Positions 5,458 to 52,264 of a stretch of 64,000 bases of DNA are shown here, one piece after another. The number at the start of each line of letters is the position of its first letter. Within the stretch, counting starts at the first letter, position 1. The stretch covers positions 2,760 through 66,759 of IMG/VR virus record IMGVR_UViG_3300030097_000310. One strand, given 5' to 3'. Below the pieces are notes generated by a model that worked only from the letters and a program-made list of their open reading frames with translations, had not been told where the DNA came from and ran no database searches. The stretch comes from a virus (taxonomy: Duplodnaviria; Caudoviricetes). The position numbers and the translations under genes were made by a program.

Positions 5458-5572
5458 CGGGAAAATATCTTGCCGATTATGTGACGGGATTGCCTAGCGC
5501 AAACACCAGTCACACGCGTTCGTTGCCTGGTATGTAACCAATACCACAAAAACCACCACATAGGACTCACAA

Positions 5573-5992
5573 ATGGTAGACCTCGTAATTACCGCGGCAA
5601 ACGTCGCAGCAGGTGCAAACGCGACAACTCGCCACGGCACGGCAGGCGAGACAATCACGGCCGGTCAGGCTGTATATCTTGACCAGGCGTCGACCGGCGA
5701 ATGGCTGCTAGCTGATTCCGATGGCGCCAGTGCTGCGGTCCGCGGCGGCGAGCTCGTCGGCATCGCCTTGAATGGCGCAAGCGACGGCCAGCCAATCAAG
5801 GTGCAGCTTGACGGCGACATCACGATCGGCGCAACGCTGACTGCTGGCACCACGTACTATCTTTCTGACGCGCCTGGCGGAATTTGCCCGATCGCCGATT
5901 TGGCTACTGGCGATTACTACGTGATTGTTGGTATTGCGACCAGCACTAGCGTCCTGAAGCTTGGCTTCCAGTACAGCGGCGTCGCTGCGTAA
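5573..5992 (+). CDS. Putative capsid cement/decoration protein
   Basis: TAGETITAGQAVY...GIALNGA pattern; own leader with RBS. Confidence 0.55.
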   Translation: MVDLVITAANVAAGANATTRHGTAGETITAGQAVYLDQASTGEWLLADSDGASAAVRGGELVGIALNGASDGQPIKVQLDGDITIGATLTAGTTYYLSDAPGGICPIADLATGDYYVIVGIATSTSVLKLGFQYSGVAA

Positions 5993-6336
5993 TGATCGGC
6001 GCCGGCAAAATGGACCGGCGCATCCGATTTGAGCGCCGCGAGGATGTCGACGACGGCTACGGCAATACCGTAGCAGGAGATTGGACTCCGCAATTCGAGC
6101 AGGCCGCGCATCGAATGTGGCTGCGCGGTGGAGAATCCACGTTTGCGGCACGCCTTGAGGGCCGACAGCCGGTAATCCTGACCATTCGCTGTAGTGCGCA
6201 GGCCCGGCAAGTCACCAATGATTGGCGCGCCGTCGATACGCGTGATGGACGGCTCTACAACATCCGGGAGAACCCAAAGGAATCGGAAGATAGGCAGTTT
6301 CTCGAGATGCTCGCCGAAAGCGGAGTGTCTACGTGA
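5992..6336 (+). CDS. Head closure / head-tail adaptor
   Basis: GAGKMDRRIRFER, DDGYGN, LYNIRE. Confidence 0.85.
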   Translation: MIGAGKMDRRIRFERREDVDDGYGNTVAGDWTPQFEQAAHRMWLRGGESTFAARLEGRQPVILTIRCSAQARQVTNDWRAVDTRDGRLYNIRENPKESEDRQFLEMLAESGVST

Positions 6337-6803
6337 CGATTATTGGCCTCGACAAGCTAAATCGGAAGCTAAAGACCATCCCGAGGGAAGCGGAAACGGC
6401 GGCCAAGGACGCGGTCGTTAAAGGTGCGAACGAAATCGCAGCGTTGCAGCGCAGCCTTGTGCCTGTGGTTGATGGCGACCTTCAGGACAGCATTCATGTA
6501 ACCAATCCAGGTGAATCTACGCCGCCTTATAGCCAACCAGGCGGGCAGCGTACCGCGAAAGACCTTGAGGCAATCGTAACGGCCGGAAACTCGAAAGTGC
6601 GATACGCGCATCTCGTTGAATTCGGCACAGCGCAGCACGTTAATGCTGGTATTTTCGCAGGAACGAAAAACCCTGGCACTACCGCGCGTCCGTTTTTTTG
6701 GCCCGGATTCCGTGCGCTAAGAAAGCGAGTAAAGTCGCGCATTACGCGCAGCATCAATAAAGCCGTGCGCGAAGCGGCGCAAAAGGGCGGAACAAACCCA
6801 TGA
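6333..6803 (+). CDS. HK97 gp10-like tail completion protein
   Basis: GDLQDSI, YAHLVEFGT, ARPFFWP. Confidence 0.9.
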   Translation: MTIIGLDKLNRKLKTIPREAETAAKDAVVKGANEIAALQRSLVPVVDGDLQDSIHVTNPGESTPPYSQPGGQRTAKDLEAIVTAGNSKVRYAHLVEFGTAQHVNAGIFAGTKNPGTTARPFFWPGFRALRKRVKSRITRSINKAVREAAQKGGTNP

Positions 6804-7210
6804 GCAGCACGGCGGAAGTGCAAAAACTACTTTACGACACGCTTAAAGGCGACGGCGCCATCATGGCGATTGCCAATGGCGTCTATGACCGGGTGCCAGA
6901 CAACCCGTTCGGGCAGAAAACGGCGTACATTTCATTCGGGTCCATCGACACCGCGGAAGACGACGCTGATTGCATTACGGGCGTCGAGATTACGGCGCAG
7001 ATCGATGTCTGGTCTAAAAAACCCGGCAAGGTCGAGTGCAGGACACTAACCGACCTTGTGCGGCGCAAGTTGCACCGCGCCTCGCTTGAGTTAACCGAAA
7101 ACGCACTTGTCGGAACATGGGTAGTTCTCACCCGCGTGTTTAGCGACCCGGATCCGCTGACATCGCACGGCGTCGTCCAGGTCACATGCATGGTCGAAGA
7201 GCCGAGATGA
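6800..7210 (+). CDS. Tail terminator (DUF3168-like)
   Basis: VYDRVP, YISFG, QIDVWS, HGVVQV; synteny. Confidence 0.85.
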   Translation: MSSTAEVQKLLYDTLKGDGAIMAIANGVYDRVPDNPFGQKTAYISFGSIDTAEDDADCITGVEITAQIDVWSKKPGKVECRTLTDLVRRKLHRASLELTENALVGTWVVLTRVFSDPDPLTSHGVVQVTCMVEEPR

Positions 7211-7407
7211 TGCACGCAGAGTTTCTACAAGAGTTCCACCACGACAGGCGCCCTAAAGAAGGCGTTGCGTTCGTTGTGCAACCAGGCGCGCGAAATGTCC
7301 CGCGCGATGTAGCCGAGGCGGCGATAAAGGCTGGAGCGGCTATCTCGACAGACCCTCCGCCGAAACGAAAAACCACCAACAAAATAACCACCACCACGGC
7401 CGCATAG
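7207..7407 (+). CDS. Hypothetical protein
   Basis: ATGA-coupled small ORF before the tail tube gene. Confidence 0.55.
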   Translation: MMHAEFLQEFHHDRRPKEGVAFVVQPGARNVPRDVAEAAIKAGAAISTDPPPKRKTTNKITTTTAA

Positions 7408-7420
7408 GCGGCTTTTCTTT
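7398..7420 (+). terminator. Rho-independent terminator
   Basis: GCCGC-atag-GCGGC followed by TTTTCTTTT. Confidence 0.65.
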
Positions 7421-7443
7421 TGCCCTGAAAGGACAGCCGCAAG

Positions 7444-7887
7444 ATGGCTAAAGCAACCACCCAATCATTCGAGCAGCTTATTCTGGACGTCGAGTTCGTA
7501 GCGTCCAGCGGTACCTATACCGCGATCTGCGGACTTATCGATGTTACAGTCACGCGCACCGCAAACGTCGATACGGCGGAAGTGCCGGATTGCGCAGACG
7601 AAAGCCTTCCTCTGAGCCTTGAAAAGCAGGTTCGGTCGATCGAGGTTTCTGTAAGCGGTACCGGCGTGTGGGCGCAGGAGTCGCACGGCAACCTTATGGA
7701 TTGGTTCTATTCTTCGGCTACGAAGAACGTGCGTATTCGCAATACCAATGCGTCGACCGGAGACACCGAAATCGAGTCCGGCGCAGCGCTGCTGACTTCG
7801 CTTACGAATACGCGAACGAAGGGTATCAAGGTTTCTGCCGAGATTGAAATCCAGTTCGATGGCACGCCGGCTCGTACGGACGCCTAA
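7444..7887 (+). CDS. Major tail tube protein
   Basis: YTAICGL, EVPDCADE, VSVSGTGV; synteny. Confidence 0.85.
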   Translation: MAKATTQSFEQLILDVEFVASSGTYTAICGLIDVTVTRTANVDTAEVPDCADESLPLSLEKQVRSIEVSVSGTGVWAQESHGNLMDWFYSSATKNVRIRNTNASTGDTEIESGAALLTSLTNTRTKGIKVSAEIEIQFDGTPARTDA

Positions 7888-7889
7888 TC

Positions 7890-8249
7890 ATGGCTAGAGG
7901 AGTTGAGCTGACATGGGCTGGCGGTGAGCATGTGTTTTTGCTCACCGTCGATTTGCTGCGCGCGGTGCAGGACAAGTGCGACGCAGGGCCAGCTTACATT
8001 CTTGAGCGGCTTTCGACGCGTCGTTGGCATGTTGATGACGTGCTGGCGCCTATCAGGCTAGGGCTTGAAGGTGGCGGCATGGACAAGGAAGATGCGCGCA
8101 AGCTAGTCAAGCGGCACGTCGAGGACGAACCGCTTGCTGCGTCCGTCCTGACTGCTCAGGCGGTGCTTATGTCCGTGCTTTACGGAGCAGCGGACGAGGA
8201 CGACGGAGACAGCGACTCGGGGGAAGCGCCGGCGGCAGCGGACGCCTAA
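7890..8249 (+). CDS. Tail assembly chaperone (GTA gp10-like)
   Basis: DKCDAGP, IRLGLEGGGM; follows tube gene. Confidence 0.85.
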   Translation: MARGVELTWAGGEHVFLLTVDLLRAVQDKCDAGPAYILERLSTRRWHVDDVLAPIRLGLEGGGMDKEDARKLVKRHVEDEPLAASVLTAQAVLMSVLYGAADEDDGDSDSGEAPAAADA

Positions 8250-8449
8250 AGCCGCTGCCGCGTGGAAAAATTAGGTTTGACGATCTCTATAAATGGGGCG
8301 GCGTAATCAATCGCGACATTGGCGCAATGACGCTATTTGAATTGCGCGCCGCTACGCAAGGCTACGCAGAAGCAAACGGCGCGAAACCGCGCGGCGGGTC
8401 GATCGACGACGACAAGCTAGCAGAAATGGGTATCGCTGGTTTTGCTTAG
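8219..8449 (+). CDS. -1 frame extension of tail chaperone (gpGT-like)
   Basis: Open -1 frame from G GGG GAA (8219) to TAG 8449, containing IGAMTLFELRAATQGYAEANG; no own ATG/RBS near its start. Confidence 0.7.
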   Translation, partial: GGSAGGSGRLKPLPRGKIRFDDLYKWGGVINRDIGAMTLFELRAATQGYAEANGAKPRGGSIDDDKLAEMGIAGFA

Positions 8450-8724
8450 CGAATGACGCCGTACTTTGCGGCGCATTCCTCTGCTGTAATAGATGCAGCC
8501 TTGTCGGATTGCTCGCGCTTTATGTAGTCGTCGACACCGCTGACTGCAAAACCGGCTAGCAAGTCCGGCACGCCTATCGCCTCCAATTCATGTTCAAGCG
8601 CCTTTAGCGCCAAGCGGTACTCGTAAGCCGGCGCGCACATGTAGGCGGGACCAAGTCGCTTCATGGCTTCTTCGACGCCTGGCGCAGTTGACGCCAAGGC
8701 GATCAGCATAATTGCGGTCTGCAT
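8446..8724 (-). CDS. Moron: small exported protein antisense to tail operon
   Basis: Hydrophobic N-terminus MQTAIMLIALAS, AAAGG RBS, fills the chaperone-tape measure gap. Confidence 0.6.
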   Translation of the reverse strand: MQTAIMLIALASTAPGVEEAMKRLGPAYMCAPAYEYRLALKALEHELEAIGVPDLLAGFAVSGVDDYIKREQSDKAASITAEECAAKYGVIR

Positions 8725-8766
8725 TTCGCGCCTTTCGATTATTCAAGCTAACCAGGTAATAGCCGA

Positions 8767-10980
8767 ATGGCAGATGATATTCAACGGCTAATCGTAAGCC
8801 TTGAGGCGCGCACTGCAGCTTTCGAAAAAGCAATGAACCGCGCTAACGGCGTTGCTAACAAGCGAGCGCGCGCTATTGAATCGCGGTTCGCGATGCTGAA
8901 TAAGCGCGTCGGTGTCGGTCTCGGCAATGCAGCGCGCGGATGGGTCGCTGGTTTAGCGGCCGTTTTTGGTGCACGCGGGCTAAAGAGCCTGTCGGATGCC
9001 GCAACGCGAATCGACAATGCCCTAAAGGTTGCTGGTGTATCTGGCGAAGAATTAGAAAAAGTCTACGGCAAACTGCGCGACAGCGCGATTGAGAACGCGG
9101 CTCCGCTTGAGTCTCTTGTAGAGCTTTATAGCCGCGCATCGCTTGTCCAGAAAGAGTTGGGCGTTTCAAGTAAGGAGTTGCTTGGGTTTACCGATAACGT
9201 AGCGGTCGCGCTACGAGTCAGCGGGAAGTCGGCGCAAGAGGCAAGCGGCGCACTACTTCAGCTTTCGCAGGCGCTAGGGTCCGGCGCGGTTAGGGCGGAA
9301 GAATTTAACAGCGTGCAAGAGGGCGCGCTTCCTATCCTTCAGGCTGCGGCCGCAGGACTCAAGGAGGCGGGCGGGTCTGTCGCAAAGCTTCGGCAGTTGG
9401 TGATTGACGGCAAAGTTTCTTCGGAGGCGCTGTTTCGCGCGTTTGAGGCCGGCGCTCCAATCCTTGAGCGCAAGGTTGCTGATGCGGTCTTTACCGTCGA
9501 TCAGGCGACAAACAACCTTTACACGGCACTTATTGACGTTGCTCGCGAGTTCAATAAATCGACCGGAGCAAGCAAGAGGTTTGCAGAGGGAATCAACAAC
9601 GCCGCGAAGGCTATTGCTGATTTCGACGTCTCCGGCTTTATCCGGAAGATTGAGGACGCTTACGACACATTAGACCGCTTTCTTACCGATCTCGGCAACG
9701 CGCAGATTTTTGATAATCTAAACCGCGCGCTTGGCCTAATGGACGGCGAAGGCAACGTCATTAATCTGGACGCCAAGGAGGCGCAAGAGAAGGCAGCGGC
9801 ACTTGAGCGTGACATTACGCGCCTGCAAGACCAAATCTCAAACTTTACGAAGCTTGGTCTTGATACATCGGAAGCCGAGTCTCGCCTATCTGGACTGCAA
9901 AGTCAGCTGTCAGACCTGCGCGCTAGCATGGCTGACATGCCAGCTGTTCTTCCGCGCGGGAGCGTCATAGATGGCGGGTATCAAGCCACAACTGACGGCG
10001 GACCGCGCCGCAACGGTCCCCGCGGCGCTGTAGCTAGCGCTGTGTCAATTAAAGACTTCAAGGCACCATCTGGCAAAAATGGCGGCAAAAGCAAGCGCGC
10101 CAACGACTATGAGCGCGAAGTCGAGCAGATCCGCGAGCGCACCGCTGCGCTTATCGCAGAAACTCAGGCGATGGCCGGTCTTAACCCGCTGGTCGACGAC
10201 TACGGATTTGCCGTCGAAAAAGCTCGCGCTGCCGTTGAACTCGAGACCGCAGCGAAGAAAGCGGGTCTTGAGGTTACGCCTGCACTAAAGGCGACGATCG
10301 ACGAGCTAGCCACCACTTACGCCAACGCATCGGTTGCCGCTGAGCAACTTGCCGAAAGCCAGGATATGGCGCGGCAAGCAGCTGAAGATATGCGCGCGCT
10401 TGGTAAGGACGTGCTTGGTGGGTTCATCAAGGTTTTGCGAGACGGCAAGTCTGCATCGGAGGCGCTGGCTGGCGCGCTGCAGAAAGTAGCGGATAAGCTG
10501 CTCGAGGTTGCGCTTAACAGTATATTCGACGGCGGTGGGGGAGGCGGCTTTGGCGGTCTCCTTGGCGGAATCGGCAAGATATTTGGATTTGCCAAAGGCG
10601 GCGTTGCTTCTCGCAGCCGTCCGCTGCCGACGTTCGCCCGTGGCGGCGTTTCCAAGTCTGCCGCTATCTTCGGCGAGGCCGGACCAGAAGCCGCTGTGCC
10701 GTTGCCTGACGGGCGGCGCATACCTGTAGATTTGCGTATTCCTAATGGCGGCAAGGACGGCGGTACGAGCAAGGTCATGTTGCAACTTTCTCCCGGTCTA
10801 GAGGCATCCATTCTTGAGGAGGCTAGAGGCCAGGCGATAGGCATCGTCGAGGCCAGCCAGGGTGCCACGATCAACGCTGCCGCATCAAAGGCAGTGCGCG
10901 ACATTCTGCCAGGCGGCAAGTCGGCGAAATCGCTTTCCGGAGCCTACAATCTAAACCCGCGAAGCAGGAGGGCAGGCTGA
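8767..10980 (+). CDS. Tail tape measure protein
   Basis: N-terminal tape-measure domain (LLQLSQALGSGAVRAEEFNS), C-terminal FAKGG/FARGG and GEAGPEAAVPL. Confidence 0.95.
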   Translation: MADDIQRLIVSLEARTAAFEKAMNRANGVANKRARAIESRFAMLNKRVGVGLGNAARGWVAGLAAVFGARGLKSLSDAATRIDNALKVAGVSGEELEKVYGKLRDSAIENAAPLESLVELYSRASLVQKELGVSSKELLGFTDNVAVALRVSGKSAQEASGALLQLSQALGSGAVRAEEFNSVQEGALPILQAAAAGLKEAGGSVAKLRQLVIDGKVSSEALFRAFEAGAPILERKVADAVFTVDQATNNLYTALIDVAREFNKSTGASKRFAEGINNAAKAIADFDVSGFIRKIEDAYDTLDRFLTDLGNAQIFDNLNRALGLMDGEGNVINLDAKEAQEKAAALERDITRLQDQISNFTKLGLDTSEAESRLSGLQSQLSDLRASMADMPAVLPRGSVIDGGYQATTDGGPRRNGPRGAVASAVSIKDFKAPSGKNGGKSKRANDYEREVEQIRERTAALIAETQAMAGLNPLVDDYGFAVEKARAAVELETAAKKAGLEVTPALKATIDELATTYANASVAAEQLAESQDMARQAAEDMRALGKDVLGGFIKVLRDGKSASEALAGALQKVADKLLEVALNSIFDGGGGGGFGGLLGGIGKIFGFAKGGVASRSRPLPTFARGGVSKSAAIFGEAGPEAAVPLPDGRRIPVDLRIPNGGKDGGTSKVMLQLSPGLEASILEEARGQAIGIVEASQGATINAAASKAVRDILPGGKSAKSLSGAYNLNPRSRRAG

Positions 10981-10981
10981 C

Positions 10982-11338
10982 ATGGTTTTTTGGCCGGCGT
11001 CTTTGCCGAAGTGCTCAATACCGCAAGGCAGATCGACCACATACGCGCGGTCGGCGCGGGAGTTCACTCCAGACGATGGTCGTCCGCTCCGGAGAGTCAC
11101 ACGATCGACTGCAGACAAGATATTCGGCGGCACATTCACGATGACGACAGCGCAGCTCGCGGATTTCTGGACGTTCTGGAACGAGACGACAAACCACGGC
11201 GTGTCCAGCTTCAATATGTGGGATCCGGATGCAGGTGCCAATGTAACCGTGATATTCGATAGCGTAGACCCCCCCATCGCCGAGACAGTGATGCGCGGGC
11301 GTCACAACGTAAATCTGTCCTTCCGGGTCGTAGGCTGA
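10982..11338 (+). CDS. Putative distal tail protein
   Basis: Directly after tape measure; FWTFWNETTNHG. Confidence 0.6.
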   Translation: MVFWPASLPKCSIPQGRSTTYARSAREFTPDDGRPLRRVTRSTADKIFGGTFTMTTAQLADFWTFWNETTNHGVSSFNMWDPDAGANVTVIFDSVDPPIAETVMRGRHNVNLSFRVVG

Positions 11339-11793
11339 TGCCGGCGCGGGATTTTACGTGGTCGGAGCGGCCTTCGGCGGTCTGGGTCTGGACCGCGCGG
11401 TTCGAGCATCCTTTGCTCGAGGAGCCGATCCGGGTGGCCGTGGACAGCGCCGACGTGACCTATGGCGGCGACGTCTATGCCAAGGGGGCGCTGTCGCTGG
11501 TTCCGCCGAATTTCGCGGAAGGCGACCAGAGCGCGCGGGTGCGGATCGCCAACATCAACCGGGAGGCGGGGCTCGCCATCCTGTCGATGGTGACGCCTGC
11601 GCAGGCGACCTTCGCGCTGGTCAATGCCGACGATCCGGATACCGGGGCAATCGAATGGCCGCCGATGCTTCTCGCGCAGGCCACCGGCAATGCGGTCGAG
11701 ATCACCGGAGAGTTCCGCTCGCTGGTCAACCCGCAAGACGCATGGCCGAAGGATCGCGCCACGAAGGACAACGCGCCGGCGCTGTGGATATGA
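11338..11793 (+). CDS. Tail tip protein (DUF1833-like)
   Basis: ARFEHPLLEEPIRVA, RVRIANINRE, WPKDRAT; synteny. Confidence 0.7.
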   Translation: MPARDFTWSERPSAVWVWTARFEHPLLEEPIRVAVDSADVTYGGDVYAKGALSLVPPNFAEGDQSARVRIANINREAGLAILSMVTPAQATFALVNADDPDTGAIEWPPMLLAQATGNAVEITGEFRSLVNPQDAWPKDRATKDNAPALWI

Positions 11794-12185: not shown

Positions 12186-12197
12186 GGGGTTGTATCA

Positions 12198-14906: not shown

Positions 14907-14909
14907 ACC

Positions 14910-18156: not shown

Positions 18157-18188
18157 ATACTACCTAAACCACCACAAGGAATCACCAC

Positions 18189-19894: not shown

Positions 19895-19937
19895 GTGTCT
19901 TGATTCCTGTCGGATTAGGCGTCAGCGCATAAATTGC

Positions 19938-19966
19938 TTGACCATATAGGCGAAAACGCATATTGT
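19938..19966 (+). promoter_or_regulatory. sigma70-type promoter with operator 19947-19962
   Basis: TTGACC-N17-TATTGT; TAGGCGAAAACGCATA. Confidence 0.85.
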
Positions 19967-19999
19967 GCGAATCCTTATACACGACGAAAGGGTTTCGCC

Positions 20000-20170
20000 A
20001 TGAAGTGGATTTTTATTTTAGCCATTTACTCCAACCCAACCGGGTTGACGCTCAATCACGTTGAGTTCGACACATTGGAGCAATGCCTCGCGTTTGAGAC
20101 GTTAGCCAAGCACCACAGCGACAGGCTGACGCTCGTCGAGACGACATGCTTGGCCGTTTCCACTGACTAA
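20000..20170 (+). CDS. Hypothetical small protein
   Basis: GAAAGGG RBS; first gene after promoter. Confidence 0.55.
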   Translation: MKWIFILAIYSNPTGLTLNHVEFDTLEQCLAFETLAKHHSDRLTLVETTCLAVSTD

Positions 20171-20205
20171 CCACCACTCCGTCCAACCACCACAAGGACT
20201 CCGCC

Positions 20206-30977: not shown

Positions 30978-31006
30978 AAACTATGCGAAAACGCCTAAAC
31001 CGTCAA
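30978..31006 (-). promoter_or_regulatory. Leftward promoter with operator 30982-30997
   Basis: TTGACG-N17-TAGTTT with upstream T tract. Confidence 0.85.
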
Positions 31007-31144
31007 CAAAAAAAATGCGAATGCGCATATTTAACTCAATTCCATACAGCAAAGCGCATTTTACAAATTTCGTGTAAGCACCTGTAATTATTAGGCCGGA
31101 AATCAATTCACTTTACAGCTAAGTCATTGAAAACATGGGGTTTA

Positions 31145-31196
31145 CAGCTGACTCTTAATCAGCGGGTCCACGGTTCGAGCCCGTGCTCACCCACCA
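31145..31196 (+). other. attP: attP core: 3' half of tRNA-Lys(CTT)
   Basis: CTGA-CTCTTAA-TCAG anticodon arm, CACGG-TTCGAGC-CCGTG T arm, CTCACCC-ACCA; no D arm or 5' strand; IHF-like AATCAAtaggTTA just downstream. Confidence 0.9.
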
Positions 31197-31210
31197 ATAA
31201 AATCAATAGG

Positions 31211-35931: not shown

Positions 35932-35960
35932 TCAATATGCGAAAACGCCTAACGACGCAA
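35932..35960 (-). promoter_or_regulatory. Leftward promoter with operator 35936-35951
   Basis: TTGCGT-N17-TATTGA with upstream T tract. Confidence 0.8.
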
Positions 35961-35979
35961 CAAAAAAATGCGCGTGCGC

Positions 35980-38945: not shown

Positions 38946-38972
38946 TGTGGTGGTTCTCCTGTGGTGGTTAGG

Positions 38973-40300: not shown

Positions 40301-40329
40301 AATCTAGGCGTTTTCGCCTATTAATGCAA
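40301..40329 (-). promoter_or_regulatory. Leftward promoter with symmetric operator 40305-40320
   Basis: TTGCAT-N17-TAGATT; TAGGCG-TTTT-CGCCTA. Confidence 0.85.
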
Positions 40330-40372
40330 CAAAAAAATGCGCGAACGCATACCGCCCGCGCATTGTCTTTTT

Positions 40373-41105: not shown

Positions 41106-41157
41106 TAGGCGTTATCGCATATTTATCCTTGACCGTATAGGCGAAAAAGCATATCCC
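41106..41157 (+). promoter_or_regulatory. Genetic switch: two operators (41106-41121, 41138-41153) and rightward promoter
   Basis: TTGACC-N17-TATCCC in the cI/cro intergenic region. Confidence 0.85.
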
Positions 41158-41229
41158 TTGTGACGTAGTAAACGAATCCCGGCAAAAAAGTTAAAATTTT
41201 CGGGAAACCACCACAAAGGACGCTCACTC

Positions 41230-41654: not shown

Positions 41655-41922
41655 CGAATGGCTCGGATACGAGATCGGCGAATTCGTCAAACTGCGGATT
41701 AACGGCTGGCTTGGGCAGGTTCTGAATTTCAGACAGACCAACTTCGGCGAGGAGGAATACGAACTGCGCGTTTGGACTGGATCCGAACTGTACCGCGCAT
41801 GGTTCGTCGAAAGCGAACTTGTCGGCGACTCGGCAGGCGACGGAGAAACCAACGAAGTCAAAGCGAACACGACGGCGCAGGTGATCGACCTAGCGGCGGC
41901 TAGAGCTAAAGGAGTGGCATGA
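41647..41922 (+). CDS. Hypothetical protein
   Basis: YEIGEFVKL SH3/KOW-like start. Confidence 0.6.
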   Translation: MFDEWLGYEIGEFVKLRINGWLGQVLNFRQTNFGEEEYELRVWTGSELYRAWFVESELVGDSAGDGETNEVKANTTAQVIDLAAARAKGVA

Positions 41923-43244
41923 TGGAAGAGAAGTTTAAAGCGGGTGATCGAATCGAATACACAGATTCCGATTACGCGTTCGTGGTCGACCACTGGAACC
42001 AATACTGGAGAGAAAGCGAGGGCAACCTTGAAGAGATTTATGCTGTCTCGTTTTCTGGCAATCTTATCGGGATAAGCAACAGGCCGGGCGGCAGCGGGCC
42101 GTATTATGACGCGGAATCGTTCCGCAAGGCGCGTGAGTCTGCCATGACGCCGAAATTCAAAGTAGGCGACCGCGTTGTAAGTCGCGACTACATGTTCGGC
42201 GAGGACTGTTACGGAACCGTCGACGTCGTTGACGGCAATGGCTATATTTACGCAACCGATTGGACGGTCGGCTGCCCTTCTGGACACATTCATAGCGGAG
42301 ACCTCGAACTCGCACCGCCGCCCTTCAAGGCAGGCGAAGTCATCCGCGTAACGACGGACCAGGACACGTGGGTGTATTCCGGCATGGTCGGAACCGTTCT
42401 CGAAACAGCGGCAACCAACATGCACGTCGATTTCGGCAACGACAAGGTTTGGTGGGTCGATTACGTCAATGCCGAGGCGGCGCCACTTCACATCGAGGCT
42501 GGCAAATACTACGTCGATACGACTGGCAAGCGCGTCGGTCCGATGCGTAAGTGGTCAGACGACACTAGTCATCCTTGGGAGTGTCCGCGTAGCGACGGCG
42601 ACATTTACCGCGTCGACGGTAGCAGCGATTACGGTCCGAATTTGGTGCGTGAAGCACATATTTTCGAGTTGCGCGAAGTTGTAAAGGACGGTGTCACAGT
42701 CAATAGCAATAGCACGGATCGCCGCGAACCGAAGTTCAAGGTCGGTGATCGAATCGAAGTCGCAAAGAGCGGGATGGCGGCTGACGTTGGTCACAAAGGT
42801 CGCGTAGGACCAAGGGGTGAATACCAATGCGGCATCGTAAAAACAAAACTTATCGACGTTGTATGGGACGACACGGAAGGACGCAACGGGCAGTGCAACG
42901 GCGGGTATTTTGAAGACACAATTCGACACGCCACATCCAACACCGCCATCGTCGCCAAGTTGGCCAGCAACGGGACTCCGCGACCAACGCACAAGCCGTA
43001 TGTCCACGCCAATGTCGAAAGCGCGAAGGCCGAAGCGCAGCGGCTTGCCGACATGACGCCTGGCACAGAGTTCGCGGTTTACGAGCGCGTCGATATTCGC
43101 AAAGTCGAAAAGAAGTACGACCACGAATGGCAGCGGCTTGCAGTCGAAAAGTCATCCAAGGCCGGCGCTATCGCCGAGCTGAAGAAAACTGCAGGCATCA
43201 CGACTGCGCAGGCTAGCCGTATCGTTTACGATTACGCAGCCTAA
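41919..43244 (+). CDS. Multi-module protein with repeated KF(K)xGDRV (SH3/KOW-like) units
   Basis: KFKAGDRI, KFKVGDRV, PFKAGEVI, HIEAGKYY, KFKVGDRI. Confidence 0.7.
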   Translation: MMEEKFKAGDRIEYTDSDYAFVVDHWNQYWRESEGNLEEIYAVSFSGNLIGISNRPGGSGPYYDAESFRKARESAMTPKFKVGDRVVSRDYMFGEDCYGTVDVVDGNGYIYATDWTVGCPSGHIHSGDLELAPPPFKAGEVIRVTTDQDTWVYSGMVGTVLETAATNMHVDFGNDKVWWVDYVNAEAAPLHIEAGKYYVDTTGKRVGPMRKWSDDTSHPWECPRSDGDIYRVDGSSDYGPNLVREAHIFELREVVKDGVTVNSNSTDRREPKFKVGDRIEVAKSGMAADVGHKGRVGPRGEYQCGIVKTKLIDVVWDDTEGRNGQCNGGYFEDTIRHATSNTAIVAKLASNGTPRPTHKPYVHANVESAKAEAQRLADMTPGTEFAVYERVDIRKVEKKYDHEWQRLAVEKSSKAGAIAELKKTAGITTAQASRIVYDYAA

Positions 43245-45453: not shown

Positions 45454-45662
45454 TGGCAGACAGCGAGTACACAGCAACGCTTGAGCGATGGTCATTCGCA
45501 CATGGATATTACTTTGGTGCCATTTACGGCGACAAAAAAGAAAGGTTCGCTGACGGATCAGTCGTTCGCACTAGCCTGAATAAATCAAAGCCAGGCAAGG
45601 AGGGCGACATCATCACCACATCGAACAGCCGTTACCTCCTCGGCAAGCCAGCCACCACCTAA
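45450..45662 (+). CDS. Hypothetical protein
   Basis: GAIYGDKKERFADG..RTS..TSNSRYLLG. Confidence 0.6.
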   Translation: MMADSEYTATLERWSFAHGYYFGAIYGDKKERFADGSVVRTSLNKSKPGKEGDIITTSNSRYLLGKPATT

Positions 45663-45687
45663 ACCACCACGAAAGGCAACCACCACA

Positions 45688-46266
45688 ATGGCACAACTCG
45701 GCTCGAAATTTAACGCTACCGAACACGACACGGAGCAGCGCGACGACTACCCGGAACTCCCGAACGGCATCTACCGGCTCGAAATGGAAGCGTCGGAAAT
45801 CAAGGAAAACCCGCGCAAGAACGGCAACGGCACCAACACGCTACTGAAGACCACGTTTAACGTGCTCGAGCCGGCTGAATACGAAGGCCGGAAGCTCTTC
45901 AATAATTACAACCTTGAGCACGAAAGCTCGCAGGCGCAGGAAATCGGTCAGAAGCAGTTCGCCGCGCTTTGCCGCGCCGTCGAAATCGCCGAGGTCGACG
46001 ATTCCGAAGAACTGCACTTCCGCGCGTTCACAGCGACCGTAAAACTCGGCAAGCCGTCGAAGGAAAAAGACGCCAACGGAAACCCGGCCTACCCGGCGCG
46101 CGCTGAAATCAAACGCTACTACTTCCCCGACGAAGGTAACGTGCCGGAACCTGCGATCGACGACAACCAGCCGAAAGCGGCGCCCGCCAAAGACAACCGC
46201 CAGGCGGCAAGCAACGACAACAAGCCAGCCGCCGCCAGCGGTCAGAAAAAGCGGCCGTGGGGGTGA
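45688..46266 (+). CDS. DUF669-like single-stranded DNA-binding protein
   Basis: LPNGIY, EYEGRKLF..NL, AQEIG..FAALCRA; ends KRPWG. Confidence 0.8.
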   Translation: MAQLGSKFNATEHDTEQRDDYPELPNGIYRLEMEASEIKENPRKNGNGTNTLLKTTFNVLEPAEYEGRKLFNNYNLEHESSQAQEIGQKQFAALCRAVEIAEVDDSEELHFRAFTATVKLGKPSKEKDANGNPAYPARAEIKRYYFPDEGNVPEPAIDDNQPKAAPAKDNRQAASNDNKPAAASGQKKRPWG

Positions 46267-46268
46267 GT

Positions 46269-46436
46269 ATGACACTAGGATGGCCGCAAATCATCTACCT
46301 GCTGCTTGTCGCGCTTAGCCTTGGTGTATCCATCGCCAAGCACGGTCAGGTGCGCGATCCATACAATGTCATGGATTCAATCATCGCGACAACTATTGTC
46401 CTGCCGCTGCTCTATTGGGGCGGATTCTTTGGCTAG
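46269..46436 (+). CDS. Small two-TM protein
   Basis: MTLGWPQIIYLLL..LLYWGGFFG, 55 aa. Confidence 0.55.
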   Translation: MTLGWPQIIYLLLVALSLGVSIAKHGQVRDPYNVMDSIIATTIVLPLLYWGGFFG

Positions 46437-46526
46437 CAAATAAAAAGCGGCGGGAACCACCACGGAACCCGCCGCCTATATACCACCACAACGAGAACCA
46501 CCACAGAACCCGTCGAGGAGTAACCG

Positions 46527-47585
46527 ATGCGCATTGCACGCAACGATTTCGCGCGCCTTTTACAGCAAGTCGTGAAGGCCGTCAATAGCAGAAACACCAT
46601 TCCAGTGCTCGGTACGCTTCGGCTTGAAGCGTCTGGCGGCGCGCTAACCGTAACCGCTACCGACCTTGACTTGGAGATCAGCGGATCGATCGAAGCGGAA
46701 GGCGACTATATCGGTTGCATCGACGCCAGAATGCTCGCCGGCGCAGTAGGCAAGTTCAAGGGCGACGAGGTCACAATCGAGGCTGACGGCGACGATGCAG
46801 TAATCAAGTCAGGCCGCAGCCGCTTCAAGATGCAGACTATTCCGGTAGGCGACTTCCCTACAATGGATGGGGGCAAGTTCGGCGCTACACTGGCGCTGGA
46901 TCTTGCCGCTCTTTTTGCGCCGGTAGCGTTCGCCATGTCGGTCGAAGACGCGCGCTATTACCTGAATGGCATCTATATGCATCCGGTCGACGGCAAGCTT
47001 GTCGCGGTCGCCACGGACGGCCACAGGCTTTCCGCTAATTCTGTCGACGTGCCGCATGAGCAGCCGACCGCTGTTTTCGAGGGCATCATCATTCCGACGA
47101 AGACGGTCAACCTGCTGCCGAAGGGAGAGGTTACTGTCGATATCAGCGACGCCAAAATCCGCATTACGGACGGCAAGACGACAATCCTTAGCAAGCTGAT
47201 CGACTGTGTATTTCCGGATTACCAGCGCGTCATTCCATCCGGCAACGACAAGAATATCGTCTTTGACAACGCTACGATGCGAGATGCCGCGGACCGCGTT
47301 GCGCTGGCGTCCAACGAGCGCGGACGCGCCGTCAAGATGACGATCACGGAAGGCGTATGCGACCTTACGGTGCGCGGTGATGCGGAAGGAACCGACAGCG
47401 TGTCAGTCGATTACAGCGGCGAGGAAGTCAACATAGGCTTCAACAGCCGGTACGTCGTTGACGTGCTTGGCGCGCTTCCGCCAGGCGACGTCAACATGGC
47501 GGTTGCTGACGGCGGATCGCCTGCGTTGCTTACCAGCGACAAGGCGCCGTCGCAGCGCATCGTAATTATGCCTATGCGGGTGTAG
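46527..47585 (+). CDS. dnaN: DNA polymerase III beta sliding clamp (phage-encoded)
   Basis: TIPVLG, ATDLDL, RYYLNG, VATDGHRL, FPDYQRVIP, IGFNSRY, IMPMRV. Confidence 0.95.
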   Translation: MRIARNDFARLLQQVVKAVNSRNTIPVLGTLRLEASGGALTVTATDLDLEISGSIEAEGDYIGCIDARMLAGAVGKFKGDEVTIEADGDDAVIKSGRSRFKMQTIPVGDFPTMDGGKFGATLALDLAALFAPVAFAMSVEDARYYLNGIYMHPVDGKLVAVATDGHRLSANSVDVPHEQPTAVFEGIIIPTKTVNLLPKGEVTVDISDAKIRITDGKTTILSKLIDCVFPDYQRVIPSGNDKNIVFDNATMRDAADRVALASNERGRAVKMTITEGVCDLTVRGDAEGTDSVSVDYSGEEVNIGFNSRYVVDVLGALPPGDVNMAVADGGSPALLTSDKAPSQRIVIMPMRV

Positions 47586-47737
47586 GGCGATGACAAACAA
47601 GGAAGCAGCAACGCAGCTAGAGGTAGCGTCGCATTGGCTTAGCGAGGCCGCTGTCGCGCTCGTCAAAGAGGACTACCTGCGCGACAACCTACGCCGTGTT
47701 GCACGCGAGTGCAACCGGGCGGCAAGGAGGTTAACCG

Positions 47738-47995
47738 ATGACAAAACCTAGACCATACATGCCGTCAAACGGCACGGAAGGCGATTGGTTCGAAAGTCAG
47801 TGGTGCGCGGATTGCCACCACGACGATTACGACAACGACGTTTATTGCGCGTTGCTTTCGAAGGCGCACTGCGGCGACCAGCCAGACGAATGGATTTACC
47901 GCGATGACAAGCCGACTTGCACCGCGTTTCGCGACGCTAGCAAGCCGATGCCTATACCGCGTTGCCCTGACACATTGGAGATGTTTCCGGAATGA
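47738..47995 (+). CDS. Small Cys-rich protein
   Basis: SNGTEG..WCADC..C; ends TLEMFPE. Confidence 0.6.
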   Translation: MTKPRPYMPSNGTEGDWFESQWCADCHHDDYDNDVYCALLSKAHCGDQPDEWIYRDDKPTCTAFRDASKPMPIPRCPDTLEMFPE

Positions 47996-48258
47996 CTAAA
48001 CGATCACAGATTCCGACAAGCCTTGAGGTCGACGGAGCGCGAGGCGGTTCGTTCGTTCGCATTGATAAAACAGACAGGGAGGGAATCGTTGACATTGAAG
48101 TCGGACACTCCTGCGTTATTACGGTAAGGCAGGAATTGCCGGTTACATGGCTGGCAGCGCTTCTCACGCACGCGAAGGATATTGGCTTCGAAAACGCGAT
48201 GGGCGACCGCGAGCAGTTCCCGGCAGACTACGCCTTAATGTGTGATCCGGTCTCCTAA
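47992..48258 (+). CDS. Hypothetical protein
   Basis: Coupled ORF. Confidence 0.55.
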   Translation: MTKRSQIPTSLEVDGARGGSFVRIDKTDREGIVDIEVGHSCVITVRQELPVTWLAALLTHAKDIGFENAMGDREQFPADYALMCDPVS

Positions 48259-49202
48259 TGCCACCAATCCCAAAGCCAACCGCGTCAACCGTTCGCGCCA
48301 TCTATCAAGCTTACGAAGATGCAAACGAGCATTACGACTCGCTTGGCATTAGCGTCGGCGAGATCGGCCACGAATGCGACCGATACCTTTGGTATAACCT
48401 GCGGTGGGCAAGCGCGCCGGAGGCTATAGAGGGGCGCAAGCTTTCAATCTTCCGGACGGGCGACCGTTGGGAAGAAGTGCTGGTTAGCGACCTGGAGCGC
48501 ATTGGCGTCGACGTGTGGGGGCAGCAGGACCGCATCAGGCTTGCCGGCGGGCATATTCGCGGCAAGTGCGACGGCAAGGCTATAGGTATACCAGAAGCGC
48601 CAAAGACGGAACACCTATGCGAGTTCAAATCTTCAAACGAAAAGAGCTTCAAGGATATCGTAAAGCTCGGCTGCGAAAAGGCGAAGCCGCTGCATTACGG
48701 ACAATGTCAAATTGGAATGCACGCCTTTGGACTAAGCCGCGCGCTGTACCTTGTCGTCAACAAGAATGACGACGCGCGCTACGCCGAGCGGATCGAATAC
48801 GACGCATCCTACTGCTTGCGCCAGATCGCTCGAGCTGAACGCATAATTGGACTTAACGAGCCGCCATCGCGCATCAGCGATAAGCCCGATATTCCGCCCT
48901 GCCTGTTCTGCAAGCACAAGGCGGTTTGCCATGAAGACGCATGGCCGCGCCCGACGTGTCGGTCGTGCTTGCACAGTACGCCTGAAATGTCGGGAGACGC
49001 GCACTGGTCGTGCGCAAGGTGGTCAAAGCCGCTGTCGATCGACGAGCAAAAAGCGGGCTGTCCGGCGCATTTGTTTCTACCTGGCTTGGTGCCGGGAACG
49101 CTAGTCGACAGCGACGAGGAAAACGAAACAGTGACTTACACGCTGCGCAACGGCAGCGAGTGGGTCGACGGTGGTGGTAATGTGGAGGCGCGTAGTGAGT
49201 AA
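48258..49202 (+). CDS. Cas4-like PD-(D/E)XK exonuclease
   Basis: IGHECDR, GKCDG, EFKS, YGQCQ, CLFC..C, TCRSC. Confidence 0.88.
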   Translation: MPPIPKPTASTVRAIYQAYEDANEHYDSLGISVGEIGHECDRYLWYNLRWASAPEAIEGRKLSIFRTGDRWEEVLVSDLERIGVDVWGQQDRIRLAGGHIRGKCDGKAIGIPEAPKTEHLCEFKSSNEKSFKDIVKLGCEKAKPLHYGQCQIGMHAFGLSRALYLVVNKNDDARYAERIEYDASYCLRQIARAERIIGLNEPPSRISDKPDIPPCLFCKHKAVCHEDAWPRPTCRSCLHSTPEMSGDAHWSCARWSKPLSIDEQKAGCPAHLFLPGLVPGTLVDSDEENETVTYTLRNGSEWVDGGGNVEARSE

Positions 49203-49545
49203 AAAACCTAGGCCGATCTGCCCGATATGCGGCGAGCGCGCAACTAGGAGCATGACGGCATACGGGTTGCGCCATGATTGTTGCGGATTGTGGTCTTGGG
49301 GCAATAAGCCTCTAGCAGACGCAGACACGCACGAATTTAGAAAGAAGGCGCATGCCGCGCTTGATAGACTATGGCTTTCCGGGCGCTTATCTCGCGGCGA
49401 GGCATACCGCGCGTTGTCTTGGGCTACCGGATGGCCTGAGCGCGACTGCCATATGATGCACATGCCAAAAGAGAGAGCCGCGTTGGTTCCAGATGCAGTT
49501 CGCAAGATATGGATTGAACTTGACGGGGAGGCGACAACCAAGTGA
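49195..49545 (+). CDS. DUF3268-like zinc-finger protein
   Basis: CPICG..CCG, AHAALDRLW, R.EAYRAL. Confidence 0.7.
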   Translation: MSKKPRPICPICGERATRSMTAYGLRHDCCGLWSWGNKPLADADTHEFRKKAHAALDRLWLSGRLSRGEAYRALSWATGWPERDCHMMHMPKERAALVPDAVRKIWIELDGEATTK

Positions 49546-49886
49546 AACCCACAGCGTATTACGAGCGGCGTATTGTTGAGCTCGAGACAGAAGTCGAGCG
49601 GTTAACGCAGGTGGCGGAAGCCGATCGCGGCAAGCGCGCACCGCTGGAGTGGGGTTTGACACCAGCGGAAAACGCTATCGTGTGTCGGCTGGCGTTCCGT
49701 GAATTGGCGTCCGTTGAGTCGCTTAGGATGGCGGCCGGATCAAAATCAAACGGCACAGTGCGCGTTCAACTGCACAACGCTAAGCGCAAACTAAAGCCGC
49801 ACGGATACACCATTCGCAACATTTACGGCCACGGCTACACGGTCAGCGACAGACTGAAACTGAAACGGGAGATATGCGGTGCTTAA
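49542..49886 (+). CDS. Winged-helix (OmpR C-terminal-like) protein
   Basis: WGLTPAE, VRVQLHNAKRKL, IRNIYGHGY. Confidence 0.75.
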   Translation: MKPTAYYERRIVELETEVERLTQVAEADRGKRAPLEWGLTPAENAIVCRLAFRELASVESLRMAAGSKSNGTVRVQLHNAKRKLKPHGYTIRNIYGHGYTVSDRLKLKREICGA

Positions 49887-51633
49887 GCTACGCGACTACC
49901 AACAGGCTGCGGTCGACTCGCTGTACGAATACTGGTCCAAGGAGGCTGGATCCCCGCTTATCGTGATACCGACCGGCGGGGGGAAGAGCTTGATTCTTGC
50001 AACGGTCGTCAAAGACCTGGTCGAGAACTACCCGGATATGCGGATCCTTATCGTTACGCACGTCAAGGAGCTGATCGCGCAGAACGCGCAGGAATTGTTT
50101 GGACTGTGGCCGCAGGCTCCGGCCGGTATATTCTCCGCGGGGCTAGGCAGGCGCGACGCAAGGGCGCAGATCATATTCGGCGGCGTGCAGACCATCGCCA
50201 GCAAGACTGCGCTTATAGGCCATATCGACTTGGTTCTGGTCGACGAGGCGCACTTGATGCCACGGAAGTCGGAAACGCAATACGGCAAGCTGATCGCCGG
50301 TCTGCGCAAGACCAACCCTGACCTTAAGTTGGTCGGGCTTACCGCTACGCCATTCCGCATGGGGGAGGGATTACTGCACGAGGGTGAAGGCGCGCTGTTT
50401 GACGCGATAGCCTACGAAAAGCCAATCGGAGAAATGATCGAGGACGGATACCTGTGCAAGCCGATTTCAAAAGGCATGCACACAGGATTCGACCTTACCG
50501 GAGTCGGCAAGGTTGGCGGCGATTACAACCAAGGCAAACTGCAGGCCGCCGTCGACAAGGCGGATGTAACGCGCGCCGTGGTTAGCGAGGTTGTCGGCTA
50601 TGGCGATGGCCGCAAGTCGTGGCTGCTGTTCTGCTCTGGCGTCGAGCATGCCTTTCACGTGCGCGATGAAATCCGCGACCGCGGCTATAGTTGCGAAACG
50701 GTATGCGGCGACACGCCGGCCGACGAGCGGGCGCGCATCCTTGCAGACTTCAAAGCAGGTAAGATACGCGCTGTGACGAATAACGCCGTCATGACGACAG
50801 GCACGAATATTCCGTCAATCGATCTCGTTGCGTTTTTACGCCCGACTCTGTCCGCTTCGCTCTACATCCAAATGGCGGGGCGCGGTCTGCGCATTGCGCC
50901 TGGCAAAGACAACTGCCTGTTTCTGGACTTCGCAGGAGTGGTCCGCAAGCACGGACCGATCGACTGCGTTACGCCACCCAATGCGCGGAGCGGAGAGGGC
51001 GAGGCGCCCGTCAAGATATGTCCGCAGGAGCCGGACGACTTTGGCAGAATAGGCTGCGGATCCTTGGTGCATGCCAGCGCACGTGTGTGTCCTGACTGCG
51101 GCTTTGAATTTCCGATCGACGACGCGCCGAAGATCAAGGACAGTGCGGAGGACGCACCGATATACGGACAAGGCGACGCAACTTGGCGCACCGTAACGTC
51201 GCGCCGCTTCGATTACCACGAAGGCAAGGCGGACAAGCCGCCTAGCGTCAAGGTGACTTATATGTGTGGCATGACAGCCATTCGCGAGTGGTTGTGTCCC
51301 CAACACCAAGGTTTCGCGAAATCCAAGGCGGACCGATATTGGGTAAAGCACGGCGGCGAGCGTCCGTTTCCGGCTACCGTCATGGAATGGCTTGAGCGGC
51401 AACGCGAGCTAACCGGCACTGCGGAGATATCAGTAAAGCCTGACGGCAAATACTGGTCGGTTCAGTCACAGAAGCCAGGCGATATGCAGGAACCTGAGCC
51501 GGAGGAATACAAGCCGGACGGTACCGCCGGCGCTAACGATGGCACAGTAGAATGGTATCCTGGTGAGCATTCGCGCGGCAACATTGGATACGCAACAGCA
51601 GAGGAGTTGATGGATGACGAAATCCCGTTCTGA
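49879..51633 (+). CDS. SF2 helicase (RadD/YejH-like) with zinc ribbon
   Basis: PTGGGKS, DEAH, GLTATP, QMAGRGLR, CPDCG; ends DDEIPF. Confidence 0.93.
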   Translation: MLKLRDYQQAAVDSLYEYWSKEAGSPLIVIPTGGGKSLILATVVKDLVENYPDMRILIVTHVKELIAQNAQELFGLWPQAPAGIFSAGLGRRDARAQIIFGGVQTIASKTALIGHIDLVLVDEAHLMPRKSETQYGKLIAGLRKTNPDLKLVGLTATPFRMGEGLLHEGEGALFDAIAYEKPIGEMIEDGYLCKPISKGMHTGFDLTGVGKVGGDYNQGKLQAAVDKADVTRAVVSEVVGYGDGRKSWLLFCSGVEHAFHVRDEIRDRGYSCETVCGDTPADERARILADFKAGKIRAVTNNAVMTTGTNIPSIDLVAFLRPTLSASLYIQMAGRGLRIAPGKDNCLFLDFAGVVRKHGPIDCVTPPNARSGEGEAPVKICPQEPDDFGRIGCGSLVHASARVCPDCGFEFPIDDAPKIKDSAEDAPIYGQGDATWRTVTSRRFDYHEGKADKPPSVKVTYMCGMTAIREWLCPQHQGFAKSKADRYWVKHGGERPFPATVMEWLERQRELTGTAEISVKPDGKYWSVQSQKPGDMQEPEPEEYKPDGTAGANDGTVEWYPGEHSRGNIGYATAEELMDDEIPF

Positions 51634-51790
51634 GCCAACAGATATCATAGGCGCAAATGCCATCGCCGATTTGCGCGCTGCAGGCTGGATAATAGTGCGC
51701 GACGACGCCATCCGCTTGGCGCAGATCGCGGCGCGTTACGAGGCAGATAATGACAATGTGCCTATTGCTAAAATAGGCGAAAACGCATAA
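51614..51790 (+). CDS. Small hypothetical protein (58 aa)
   Basis: GAGGAG RBS; MTKSRSEP...EADNDNVPIAKIGENA. Confidence 0.55.
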   Translation: MTKSRSEPTDIIGANAIADLRAAGWIIVRDDAIRLAQIAARYEADNDNVPIAKIGENA

Positions 51791-51793
51791 TTT
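51765..51793 (+). promoter_or_regulatory. Internal promoter with operator 51774-51789
   Basis: TTGCTA-N17-TAATTT. Confidence 0.8.
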
Positions 51794-51830
51794 GAACGAC
51801 CACTATTGAACCACCACAAAGGAATCAACG

Positions 51831-52238
51831 ATGACCGAACTTACAGACATGCTCGGCAAGCACATGCTGGATGCCGTCGACTTCTCAAAGGAAAGCCGCA
51901 AGCGTTGGACTGACGAGTACGAGGATTGCGCTGTTTGCCGATTCCGCTTGAACGGAACGGTATACGCAGCGGTCGAGGATCCGAGCGACGGCTACCGTAG
52001 TTGCATGCAGGAACTAATCGTCGACGATCTTGCCGAAATGCAGAACGTATTTCCTCCAATCGAGGTTGTTGGGACGCACAAGACAAGCGGCAGCTTTGGC
52101 GACAAAGACGACATCCTGCAGTTGATCGACACAACAACAGGTAAGGCTGTGCTTGAGGTCGGAACCGCCAGCACGGACGACTATTACCCGTCGTTTGTTT
52201 CGCATTTCGACCCTGCCGCTATGGCGACGAACGCCTAA
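51831..52238 (+). CDS. Hypothetical protein
   Basis: EDPSDGYRS..DDYYP; AAAGGA RBS. Confidence 0.7.
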   Translation: MTELTDMLGKHMLDAVDFSKESRKRWTDEYEDCAVCRFRLNGTVYAAVEDPSDGYRSCMQELIVDDLAEMQNVFPPIEVVGTHKTSGSFGDKDDILQLIDTTTGKAVLEVGTASTDDYYPSFVSHFDPAAMATNA

Positions 52239-52264
52239 ACCACCACGCTTCAGGAACCACCACA

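Follow-up and report, generated by a model that had tools for sequence, protein, structure and literature searches.

The window analysed here is a stretch of 64,000 nts from a Caudoviricetes phage (positions 2,760 to 66,759 of IMG/VR record IMGVR_UViG_3300030097_000310). The phage carries genes for a portal, a protease, a capsid, a tape measure, a CI-type repressor, Cro, SSB, a sliding clamp, a helicase and a primase. Distributed among these genes is a short repeated sequence, the 9-mer AACCACCAC, which we call the tag. It has no G and no U, it is (ACC)n-phased, and we refer to CCACCAC as its core. The tag is a real element that operates at the RNA level, it is tied to translation starts, it is conserved as a class, and it belongs to the phage and not to the host. 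An earlier note made from the letters of the window had listed 15 perfect copies with their positions and strands, and we find every one of them. Dinucleotide-shuffled sequences have a mean of 0.15 matches and a maximum of 1, so that the chance expectation is lower than the approximately 0.5 copies that the note had given. With at most one mismatch to AACCACCAC, the window has 42 matches versus 8.3 expected. As had been claimed, each of the 15 perfect copies reads in the same direction as the genes around it; the two minus-strand copies, too, precede a minus-strand open reading frame (ORF). The sites in the window are given below together with their position relative to the Shine-Dalgarno (SD) sequence and the start codon; the operator-bearing promoters named in some of the lines are listed further on.

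5551-5559, plus strand: perfect tag, abutting the SD TAGGA and ending 13 nts 5' of ATG 5573 (a decoration-like protein of 139 amino acids, aa).
7371-7394, plus strand: degenerate AACCACCAA, then a perfect copy at 7386-7394, immediately followed by an intrinsic terminator.
7398-7413, plus strand: that intrinsic terminator with its T-run, followed by an SD and ATG 7444 (major-tail-protein homologue).
18167-18188, plus strand: perfect tag over the upstream TAA, SD AAGGA, and degenerate AATCACCAC, which ends at ATG 18189 (endolysin).
20169-20193, plus strand: two perfect tags with starts 16 nts apart, then SD AAGGA and ATG 20206 (trypsin-like protease).
38947-38969, minus strand: two perfect tags on either side of the SD AGGAG, the second ending 1 nt 5' of ATG 38945 (51-aa ORF).
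41206-41214, plus strand: perfect tag in the leader of the cro-like gene, with a small hairpin 5' of it and SD AAAGGA and ATG 41230 3' of it.
45650-45686, plus strand: one degenerate and two perfect tags flanking the SD GAAAGG, the last ending 1 nt 5' of ATG 45688 (DUF669 SSB).
46447-46504, plus strand: dnaN leader, hairpin GCGGCGGG/CCCGCCGC with a perfect tag in its loop (46455-46463); in the 3' part of the leader, TACCACCAC at 46481, a perfect tag at 46496, SD GAGGAG and ATG 46527.
51795-51817, plus strand: degenerate AACGACCAC and a perfect tag, just 3' of the operator-bearing promoter 51763-51794, then SD AAAGGA and ATG 51831.
52238-52263, plus strand: two perfect tags flanking TCAGG, the first overlapping the upstream TAA and the second 1 nt 5' of ATG 52265 (DUF5662).
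62187-62195, plus strand: degenerate AACCACAAC, in the leader 3' of promoter 62126-62157 and 21 nts 5' of ATG 62217.

The tag keeps a register with the translation start. Thirteen of the 15 perfect copies end 1-28 nts 5' of a start codon, in agreement with the earlier note, which had placed nearly all of them close to starts; the two exceptions are the copy at 7386 (49 nts upstream) and the copy at 46455 (63 nts upstream). In eight copies, the gap between the end of the tag and the ATG is 12-18 nts, and the tag abuts the SD, mostly AAGGA or AAAGGA. In three copies the gap is 1 nt (AACCACCACAATG); there the tag fills the spacer between SD and ATG, and a second copy is found across the SD. In several cases the copy runs over the TAA with which the preceding gene ends. 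The tagged leaders also include seven copies with one mismatch, at 7371, 7389 (this one overlaps the copy at 7386), 18180, 45650, 46481, 51795 and 62187. An A follows the 9-mer in 10 of the 15 perfect copies. The upstream runs consisting only of A and C are nearly all ACC-phased (CCACCAC, CACCACC, ACCACCA), which indicates that the sequence counts and not the composition alone; ACACACACA is an example of an A/C-only sequence that differs from the tag. Approximately ten leaders are tagged, in early and late genes alike: those of the decoration-like protein, endolysin, trypsin-like protease, 51-aa ORF, Cro-like helix-turn-helix protein, DUF669 SSB, sliding clamp, a protein of no assigned function and DUF5662. 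These agree with the lysin, protease, cro, SSB and dnaN that the earlier note had named, and the copies at 5551, 7386 and 18167 are situated among head, tail and lysis genes. The hairpin that displays the 46455 copy and the variant TACCACCAC at 46481 are likewise present as described.

The assembly from which the window comes separates phage from host. In a genome of 4.13 Mb and 38 contigs, the window corresponds to contig C18, read on the minus strand, and C18 holds approximately 1.5 copies of a 66,769-bp phage unit. At the end of C18, a complete tRNA-Lys(CUU) (G000:C18:99577-99652) is joined to phage DNA and accompanied by approximately 920 bp of host flank, and the 3' two-thirds of the same tRNA are found inside the phage at approximately 31145-31197 of the window (attP core). 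Neither tRNA-Lys(CUU) nor rRNA is found in the rest of the assembly. The tRNA junction together with the 1.5 unit copies indicates that the phage is temperate, has integrated at tRNA-Lys and was assembled via a circular or concatemeric form. There are 59 copies of AACCACCAC genome-wide, of which 25 are on C18 (approximately 2.5 per 10 kb). The remaining 34 are scattered over the other 37 contigs (approximately 4.03 Mb, 0.08 copies per 10 kb), and none of them adjoins a start. CCACCAC is not enriched upstream of 3,417 crudely called host genes, with 5 sense versus 8 antisense occurrences, and a host-wide feature is rejected on this count. The commonest upstream words of the host are AAAGGA and AAGGA(A/G), the SD type of the tagged phage genes.

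In predicted structures, the tag is open. Its mean probability of being unpaired is 0.83, versus 0.43 ± 0.20 for the same position in 90 other genes. The predicted openness of the initiation region is 0.62 for tagged and 0.44 for untagged genes (p=3e-4), and replacing the tag in silico by random sequence closes the initiation region in 8 of 9 genes. Every tagged gene has an SD, and its predicted strength (-5.9 kcal/mol for tagged versus -7.0 kcal/mol for untagged genes) does not differ significantly between the two sets, so that compensation for weak SDs is rejected. As these SDs are ordinary, the tag accompanies the SD and does not substitute for it. For pairing with 16S rRNA we used the 16S of a genome of the same genus (3' end GGAUCACCUCCUUUCU), since the assembly of the window has no 16S of its own. 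It contains no GUGGUGG and no complement of 7 nts or longer; there is one 6-nt GUGGUU, which is the chance level, and two GGUGG. A specific pairing of the T7 epsilon type is not supported, given the lack of a complement to the core in that 16S.

The element is kept in relatives of the phage. TerL is 73-82% identical to those of prophages of Rhizobium, Ensifer, Shinella and Pararhizobium, and 80-82% identical to those of Rhizobium phage RHph_TM3_3_14B (TM3) and Sinorhizobium phage NV1.1.1 (NV1). All these relatives have sense-strand CCACCAC, usually 0-5 nts before GAGGAGAC and a start. In an unbiased count of 7-mers at positions -40 to -1, the tag words are the most enriched in the window phage and in TM3, and in NV1 they rank alongside the SD words. 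In RHph_X2_26 (X2_26), with a TerL 56% identical and similar replication genes, the same count yields SD words only and the tag words are absent. The orthologues of SSB and dnaN keep the tag, including those of phage 16-3 (locus L067). Conservation of position relative to starts, which the earlier note had proposed to look for in related phages, is thus found before SSB, dnaN and other genes. The relatives also carry CCACCAC directly 5' of terminator hairpins and inside the loops of hairpins with quite different stems: CCGGATGG/CCATCCGG in NV1, GCCCG/GCGGGC in L021, L023 and L024, and loops with CCACCAA in TM3. As a separate observation, the late operon has an internal intrinsic terminator immediately 5' of the gene for the major tail protein (7398-7423 of the window), with homologous sites in L020, L024, L029, L031 and L033; in most relatives, CCACCAC or a C/A-rich stretch with CACCAC lies before this terminator or in its loop, and the stems differ. 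For the dnaN product of the window we find two proteins with 94-95% identity (P0001, P0002). Scans of IMG/VR and metagenomes with dnaN give only distant or cellular clamps, a family-wide genome search with dnaN gives host-type clamps only (39-42% identity), and the early region has no megablast matches in phage records.

The core also recurs in phages that are not relatives. We scanned IMG/VR for a cassette consisting of CCACCAC, 1-5 nts, GGAGAC, 4-8 nts and ATG, which occurs in at least 120 loci. Among the matches listed, 14 of 120 loci have at least three cassettes. Eight of them are relatives, and six (L064, L111, L060, L118, L057 and L122; GC content 44-73%) have no detected protein in common with the window phage, in a comparison limited to the stretch available. 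A control motif of the same composition, CCCACAC, yields at least three cassettes in 0 of the 118 loci among the matches listed in the same scan, which shows that the multi-copy pattern is not due to the selection of loci. L064 carries CobS/CobT-like genes. L118 (IMGVR_UViG_3300030450_001181) is cyanopodovirus-like with 44% GC, and its minus strand at 3682-5163 repeats a small hairpin followed by AACCCACCACAAGGAG, with a start codon 7 nts further on; Prochlorococcus phage P-SCSP1k, the isolate nearest to L118, does not have the tag. A scan of IMG/VR for the tag doublet gives only Thr-rich coding repeats.

The reading that we rank first, to which we give about an even chance, is that the tag is a cis-acting, unstructured landing or enhancer site for translation initiation, read by the ribosome. 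The single-stranded C/A-rich tag would keep the initiation region open, and it would offer the 30S subunit a landing or enhancer site next to an ordinary SD. Chosen genes (Cro, SSB, clamp, lysin and protease here; capsid and tail genes in relatives) would then start efficiently and independently of the upstream cistron. The position, strandedness and phage specificity of the tag, its conservation in relatives and its recurrence in unrelated phages are observed, and its single-strandedness is predicted; from these, we infer an effect on ribosome recruitment and a reader that would be the ribosome or its protein S1. An enhancer comes first because it alone explains the same core in unrelated phages, and because it agrees with in vitro selection. 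Known leader enhancers such as the (CAA)n of tobacco mosaic virus omega, CA repeats and ribosome standby sites are A/C-rich, G-free and unstructured, and they raise bacterial initiation. These G-poor enhancers are thought to act via protein S1 or standby binding and need no exact sequence; the tag differs from them in that it is an exact 9-mer in 15 copies. The selection in question used E. coli ribosomes in a ribosome display that favoured fast translation, in which C-rich leaders were enriched and CCACC was the top 5-mer (Barendt et al. 2012, PMC3310771). In that work AC repeats co-occurred with GGAGG, and C-rich leaders were noted in phages of hosts other than E. coli (PMC3310771). The tag supplies CCACC within 18 nts of the AUG. 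The selected leaders, in contrast, are synthetic and mostly without an SD, whereas the tagged genes keep theirs, and pairing with G-rich 16S segments was proposed for them, whereas we find no specific complement here.

Several points weigh against an enhancer read by the ribosome. An exact 9-mer in 15 copies, 10 of them with the next A, goes beyond the needs of an unstructured pad and suggests a reader that recognises a specific sequence. As tagged and untagged genes do not differ significantly in SD strength, the tag does not make up for weak SDs. With no 16S complement of 7 nts or longer, the base-pairing mechanism of PMC3310771 is not supported here, and the C-rich leaders selected in vitro performed poorly in E. 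coli in vivo (PMC3310771). The tag before gene 5573 is missing from its orthologues, which shows that single sites turn over while the class of element is conserved. The repeat of L118 could be a start tag or a promoter of a phage RNA polymerase (RNAP); L118 is T7-like, which makes it a weaker case. A wider form of the enhancer proposal, which we regard as rather unlikely, is that CCACCAC directly 5' of an SD is a general signal with a conserved ribosomal reader, adopted independently by phages of very different hosts, to which 16-3-like phages would have added an antisense lock. Candidate adopters are the rhizobial siphophages, the cyanopodovirus-like contig with 44% GC, and unrelated contigs with 61-73% GC.

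The explanations that compete with an enhancer differ in what they take to read the tag. One is an antisense RNA of the phage, which would base-pair with AACCACCAC(A) and thereby block or otherwise time the translation of the tagged genes, the tag being mainly its address; we hold this to be possible, on the doubtful side. The RNA would come from the immunity region in the 16-3-like relatives, and in the window phage the candidate is a minus-strand RNA of approximately 115 nts opposite the dnaN leader.

46436-46552, minus strand: candidate antisense RNA opposite the dnaN leader, with CUCCUC and three GUGGUGGU(U/A), ending in a GC hairpin and the T-run UUUUUAUUU.
L034:22835-23030 (TM3), minus strand: noncoding stretch of approximately 190 nts between two repressor genes.
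L036:6425-6625 (NV1.1.1), minus strand: the same noncoding stretch.
L085:5380-5578 (IMG/VR contig), minus strand: the same noncoding stretch.

An identity of 9-10 nts across 15 copies suits the seed pairing of two RNAs. The minus strand of 46552-46436 folds at -50.2 kcal/mol (z=-4.65), versus -29.4 kcal/mol (z=-2.74) for the plus strand. Two of its hairpins display GUGGUGGUU in near-identical loops, and the second depends on G-U pairs, in place of which the plus strand has A-C mismatches. On the minus strand there is a terminator, with a T-run (UUUUUAUUU) after the last hairpin on that strand only. In TM3, NV1 and L085, the stretch of approximately 190 nts is conserved, follows a CTTGACAAATTTG box and contains GUGGUGG, GUCUCCUC and GGGUGGUG, which are exact complements of both halves of the leaders of these three phages, tag and SD; the TM3 copy ends in a terminator hairpin with a T-run, and a consensus fold of the three stretches has some compensatory pairs. 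The arrangement recalls the antisense immunity RNAs c4 of P1/P7 and CI of P4, in which exposed segments of one phage RNA are complementary to repeated leader sites. The candidate of the window differs from these in being cis-antisense to one leader, with no clear promoter and no Rfam match: a search with Rfam finds no C4-family match in the window, only a tRNA. A promoter scan finds no minus-strand promoter, and by eye there is only a weak TTGACG-17-TAAAAG without the final T. In TM3, NV1, 16-3 and L085, the dnaN leaders have not retained this T-run of the minus strand. The window phage also has a different immunity region, a blastn search for the TM3 or NV1 RNA gives no homologue in it or elsewhere in this phage, and the noncoding stretches of the window have no 7-mer or 6-mer complementary to the tag apart from the antisense of its own leaders. 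We find no independent gene for a small RNA against the tag in the window phage; the promoter at 60816 drives a 72-aa ORF and not an RNA. Private small RNAs, moreover, poorly explain the same 7-mer in unrelated phages. An antisense address and an enhancer are not exclusive, and the tag may serve as both.

A sequence-specific RNA-binding protein of the phage or the host, reading the tag single-stranded next to the SD and in loops, would account for the exact sequence, for its location at the ribosome-binding site, and for its display in loops on unrelated stems (46455 in the window, and in relatives) as well as in linear form. Comparable proteins are CsrA, which reads GGA, and T4 RegA, which reads early leaders. 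The proteins that the window phage, TM3 and NV1 have in common and that X2_26 lacks show no RNA-binding domain, however, and the host's own genes do not carry the tag, and we find this explanation improbable. Phages of very different GC would require a very widely conserved host protein, at which point a protein site merges with reading by the ribosome or S1. An action on DNA, as a stoperator-like asymmetric repressor site or as a promoter element of a phage sigma factor or RNAP, we judge very improbable. We take AACCCACCACAAGGAG of L118 to resemble the promoters of single-subunit RNAPs. As in the stoperators of L5, the tag is asymmetric, oriented with transcription and located in short intergenic gaps (PMC3203893). 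Against this, the register of the tag is set by the SD and the ATG and not by any -35/-10 pair, a copy ending 1 nt 5' of an ATG cannot be the promoter of that gene, and no RNAP gene is seen among the phage genes. A sigma-factor promoter is not supported, as the sigma gene of TM3 is absent from the window phage and present in X2_26, which has no tag. A repressor or stoperator site is unlikely, since eight promoters carry a different operator, TAGGCGAAAACGCATA, which suits a CI-type repressor. It is just as hard to credit that the copies have no function of their own and go back to a single ribosome-binding cassette that recombination carried to other places, in the same phage and in related ones. 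Some copies do share similarity past the 9-mer (families D7 and D9, 77-86% over 21-22 nts), and individual sites are gained or lost from one relative to the next. Apart from that the flanks show no relationship, though, and the core persists where the hairpin stems differ and where the SD is of another type (AAGGA in the window phage, GAGGAGAC in relatives); no copy is antisense, and phages unrelated in protein share the core, which is not the case for the control motif.

The operator is a 16-bp near-palindrome, TAGGCGAAAACGCATA, embedded in each of eight promoter-like sites (CTTGAC ...).

19936-19967, 41127-41158, 51763-51794, 60816-60847 and 62126-62157, plus strand: promoters with TAGGCGAAAACGCATA.
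30982-31014, 35936-35968 and 40305-40337, minus strand: promoters with TAGGCGAAAACGCATA.

Presumably TAGGCGAAAACGCATA is the operator of the CI-type repressor, in a regulon that would extend over the whole phage. Tagged leaders come after several of these promoters, and the tag at 41206 is downstream of the one at 41127-41158. The stoperators of L5 and of further phages in cluster A are asymmetric 13-bp sites that share the orientation of transcription and occupy the short gaps between genes, early and late alike, and in all this they are like the tag. They are, in contrast, DNA sites identical to the operator that the repressor has at its promoter, whereas here the operator is another, 16-bp sequence and the tag follows the SD and ATG.

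The closest known systems are the start-associated sequences SAS and ESAS of the cluster K mycobacteriophages (Pope et al. 2011, PMC3203893), the function of which was still open in 2025 (PMC12699233). SAS and the tag have much in common: each is a short, asymmetric repeat with 10-20 copies, which all face the same way and lie a few nts from a start. The copies frequently run into the stop codon of the preceding gene, the host genome has hardly any of them, and related phages retain the repeat in front of different genes. The SAS sequence GGGATAGGAGCCC includes the SD core, whereas the tag has no G, flanks a separate SD and is unrelated in sequence. SAS is confined to the non-structural arm, while the tag is also found before late genes. 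The hosts are Mycobacterium for SAS and Alphaproteobacteria for the tag, and the core of the tag is also found in unrelated phages. Judged by its sequence, the tag is therefore an element of the start-associated kind that stands outside the SAS family, as it has neither the SD core nor the SAS sequence.

The earlier note had proposed an RNA-level control element spanning early and late genes. That proposal fits what we find, namely strand specificity, a fixed register with SD and ATG, predicted single-strandedness and retention in relatives. Among the three mechanisms that it had offered, which do not include an antisense RNA, a translational enhancer is the best supported. For a protein site no binding protein is identified, and antitermination has nothing in its favour beyond one copy beside a terminator.

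Three further features of the phage lie apart from the tag. A noncoding region after a terminator (61140-61420 of the window) has the direct repeats GTTCTCCGCTAAGTGCGA, AGAAGTTGCAAG and AATACAACCTACA, each in two copies; these iteron-like repeats could be an origin or a packaging site. An early protein of 441 aa (41919-43244) is found in TM3 and NV1 and not in X2_26; it has an internal repeat 801 nts apart (K-F-K-x-G-D-R-I-E), and Pfam gives only faint SH3-like matches. The phage has a tRNA gene at 63218-63290, the sole Rfam match in the window.

A literature search found no paper describing CCACCAC in phage leaders. The tag is a second case of start-associated repeats, unrelated to the SAS of cluster K, the one phage group for which such repeats had been described, and simpler, in phages of Alphaproteobacteria. 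Its cultivable relatives 16-3, NV1.1.1 and RHph_TM3_3_14B have genetically tractable hosts, and since tag and SD are distinct sequences, either can be changed without touching the other. Two questions thereby become testable: whether a C/A-rich signal adjoining the SD is recognised by the ribosomes of bacteria, and whether a private phage tag, possibly with an antisense RNA, sets apart the translation of phage genes. If it works, the tag would also offer a small building block with which to adjust expression in Alphaproteobacteria. If CCACCAC were a general signal, it would correspond in nature to CCACC, the motif that comes out on top when leaders are selected in vitro for fast translation.

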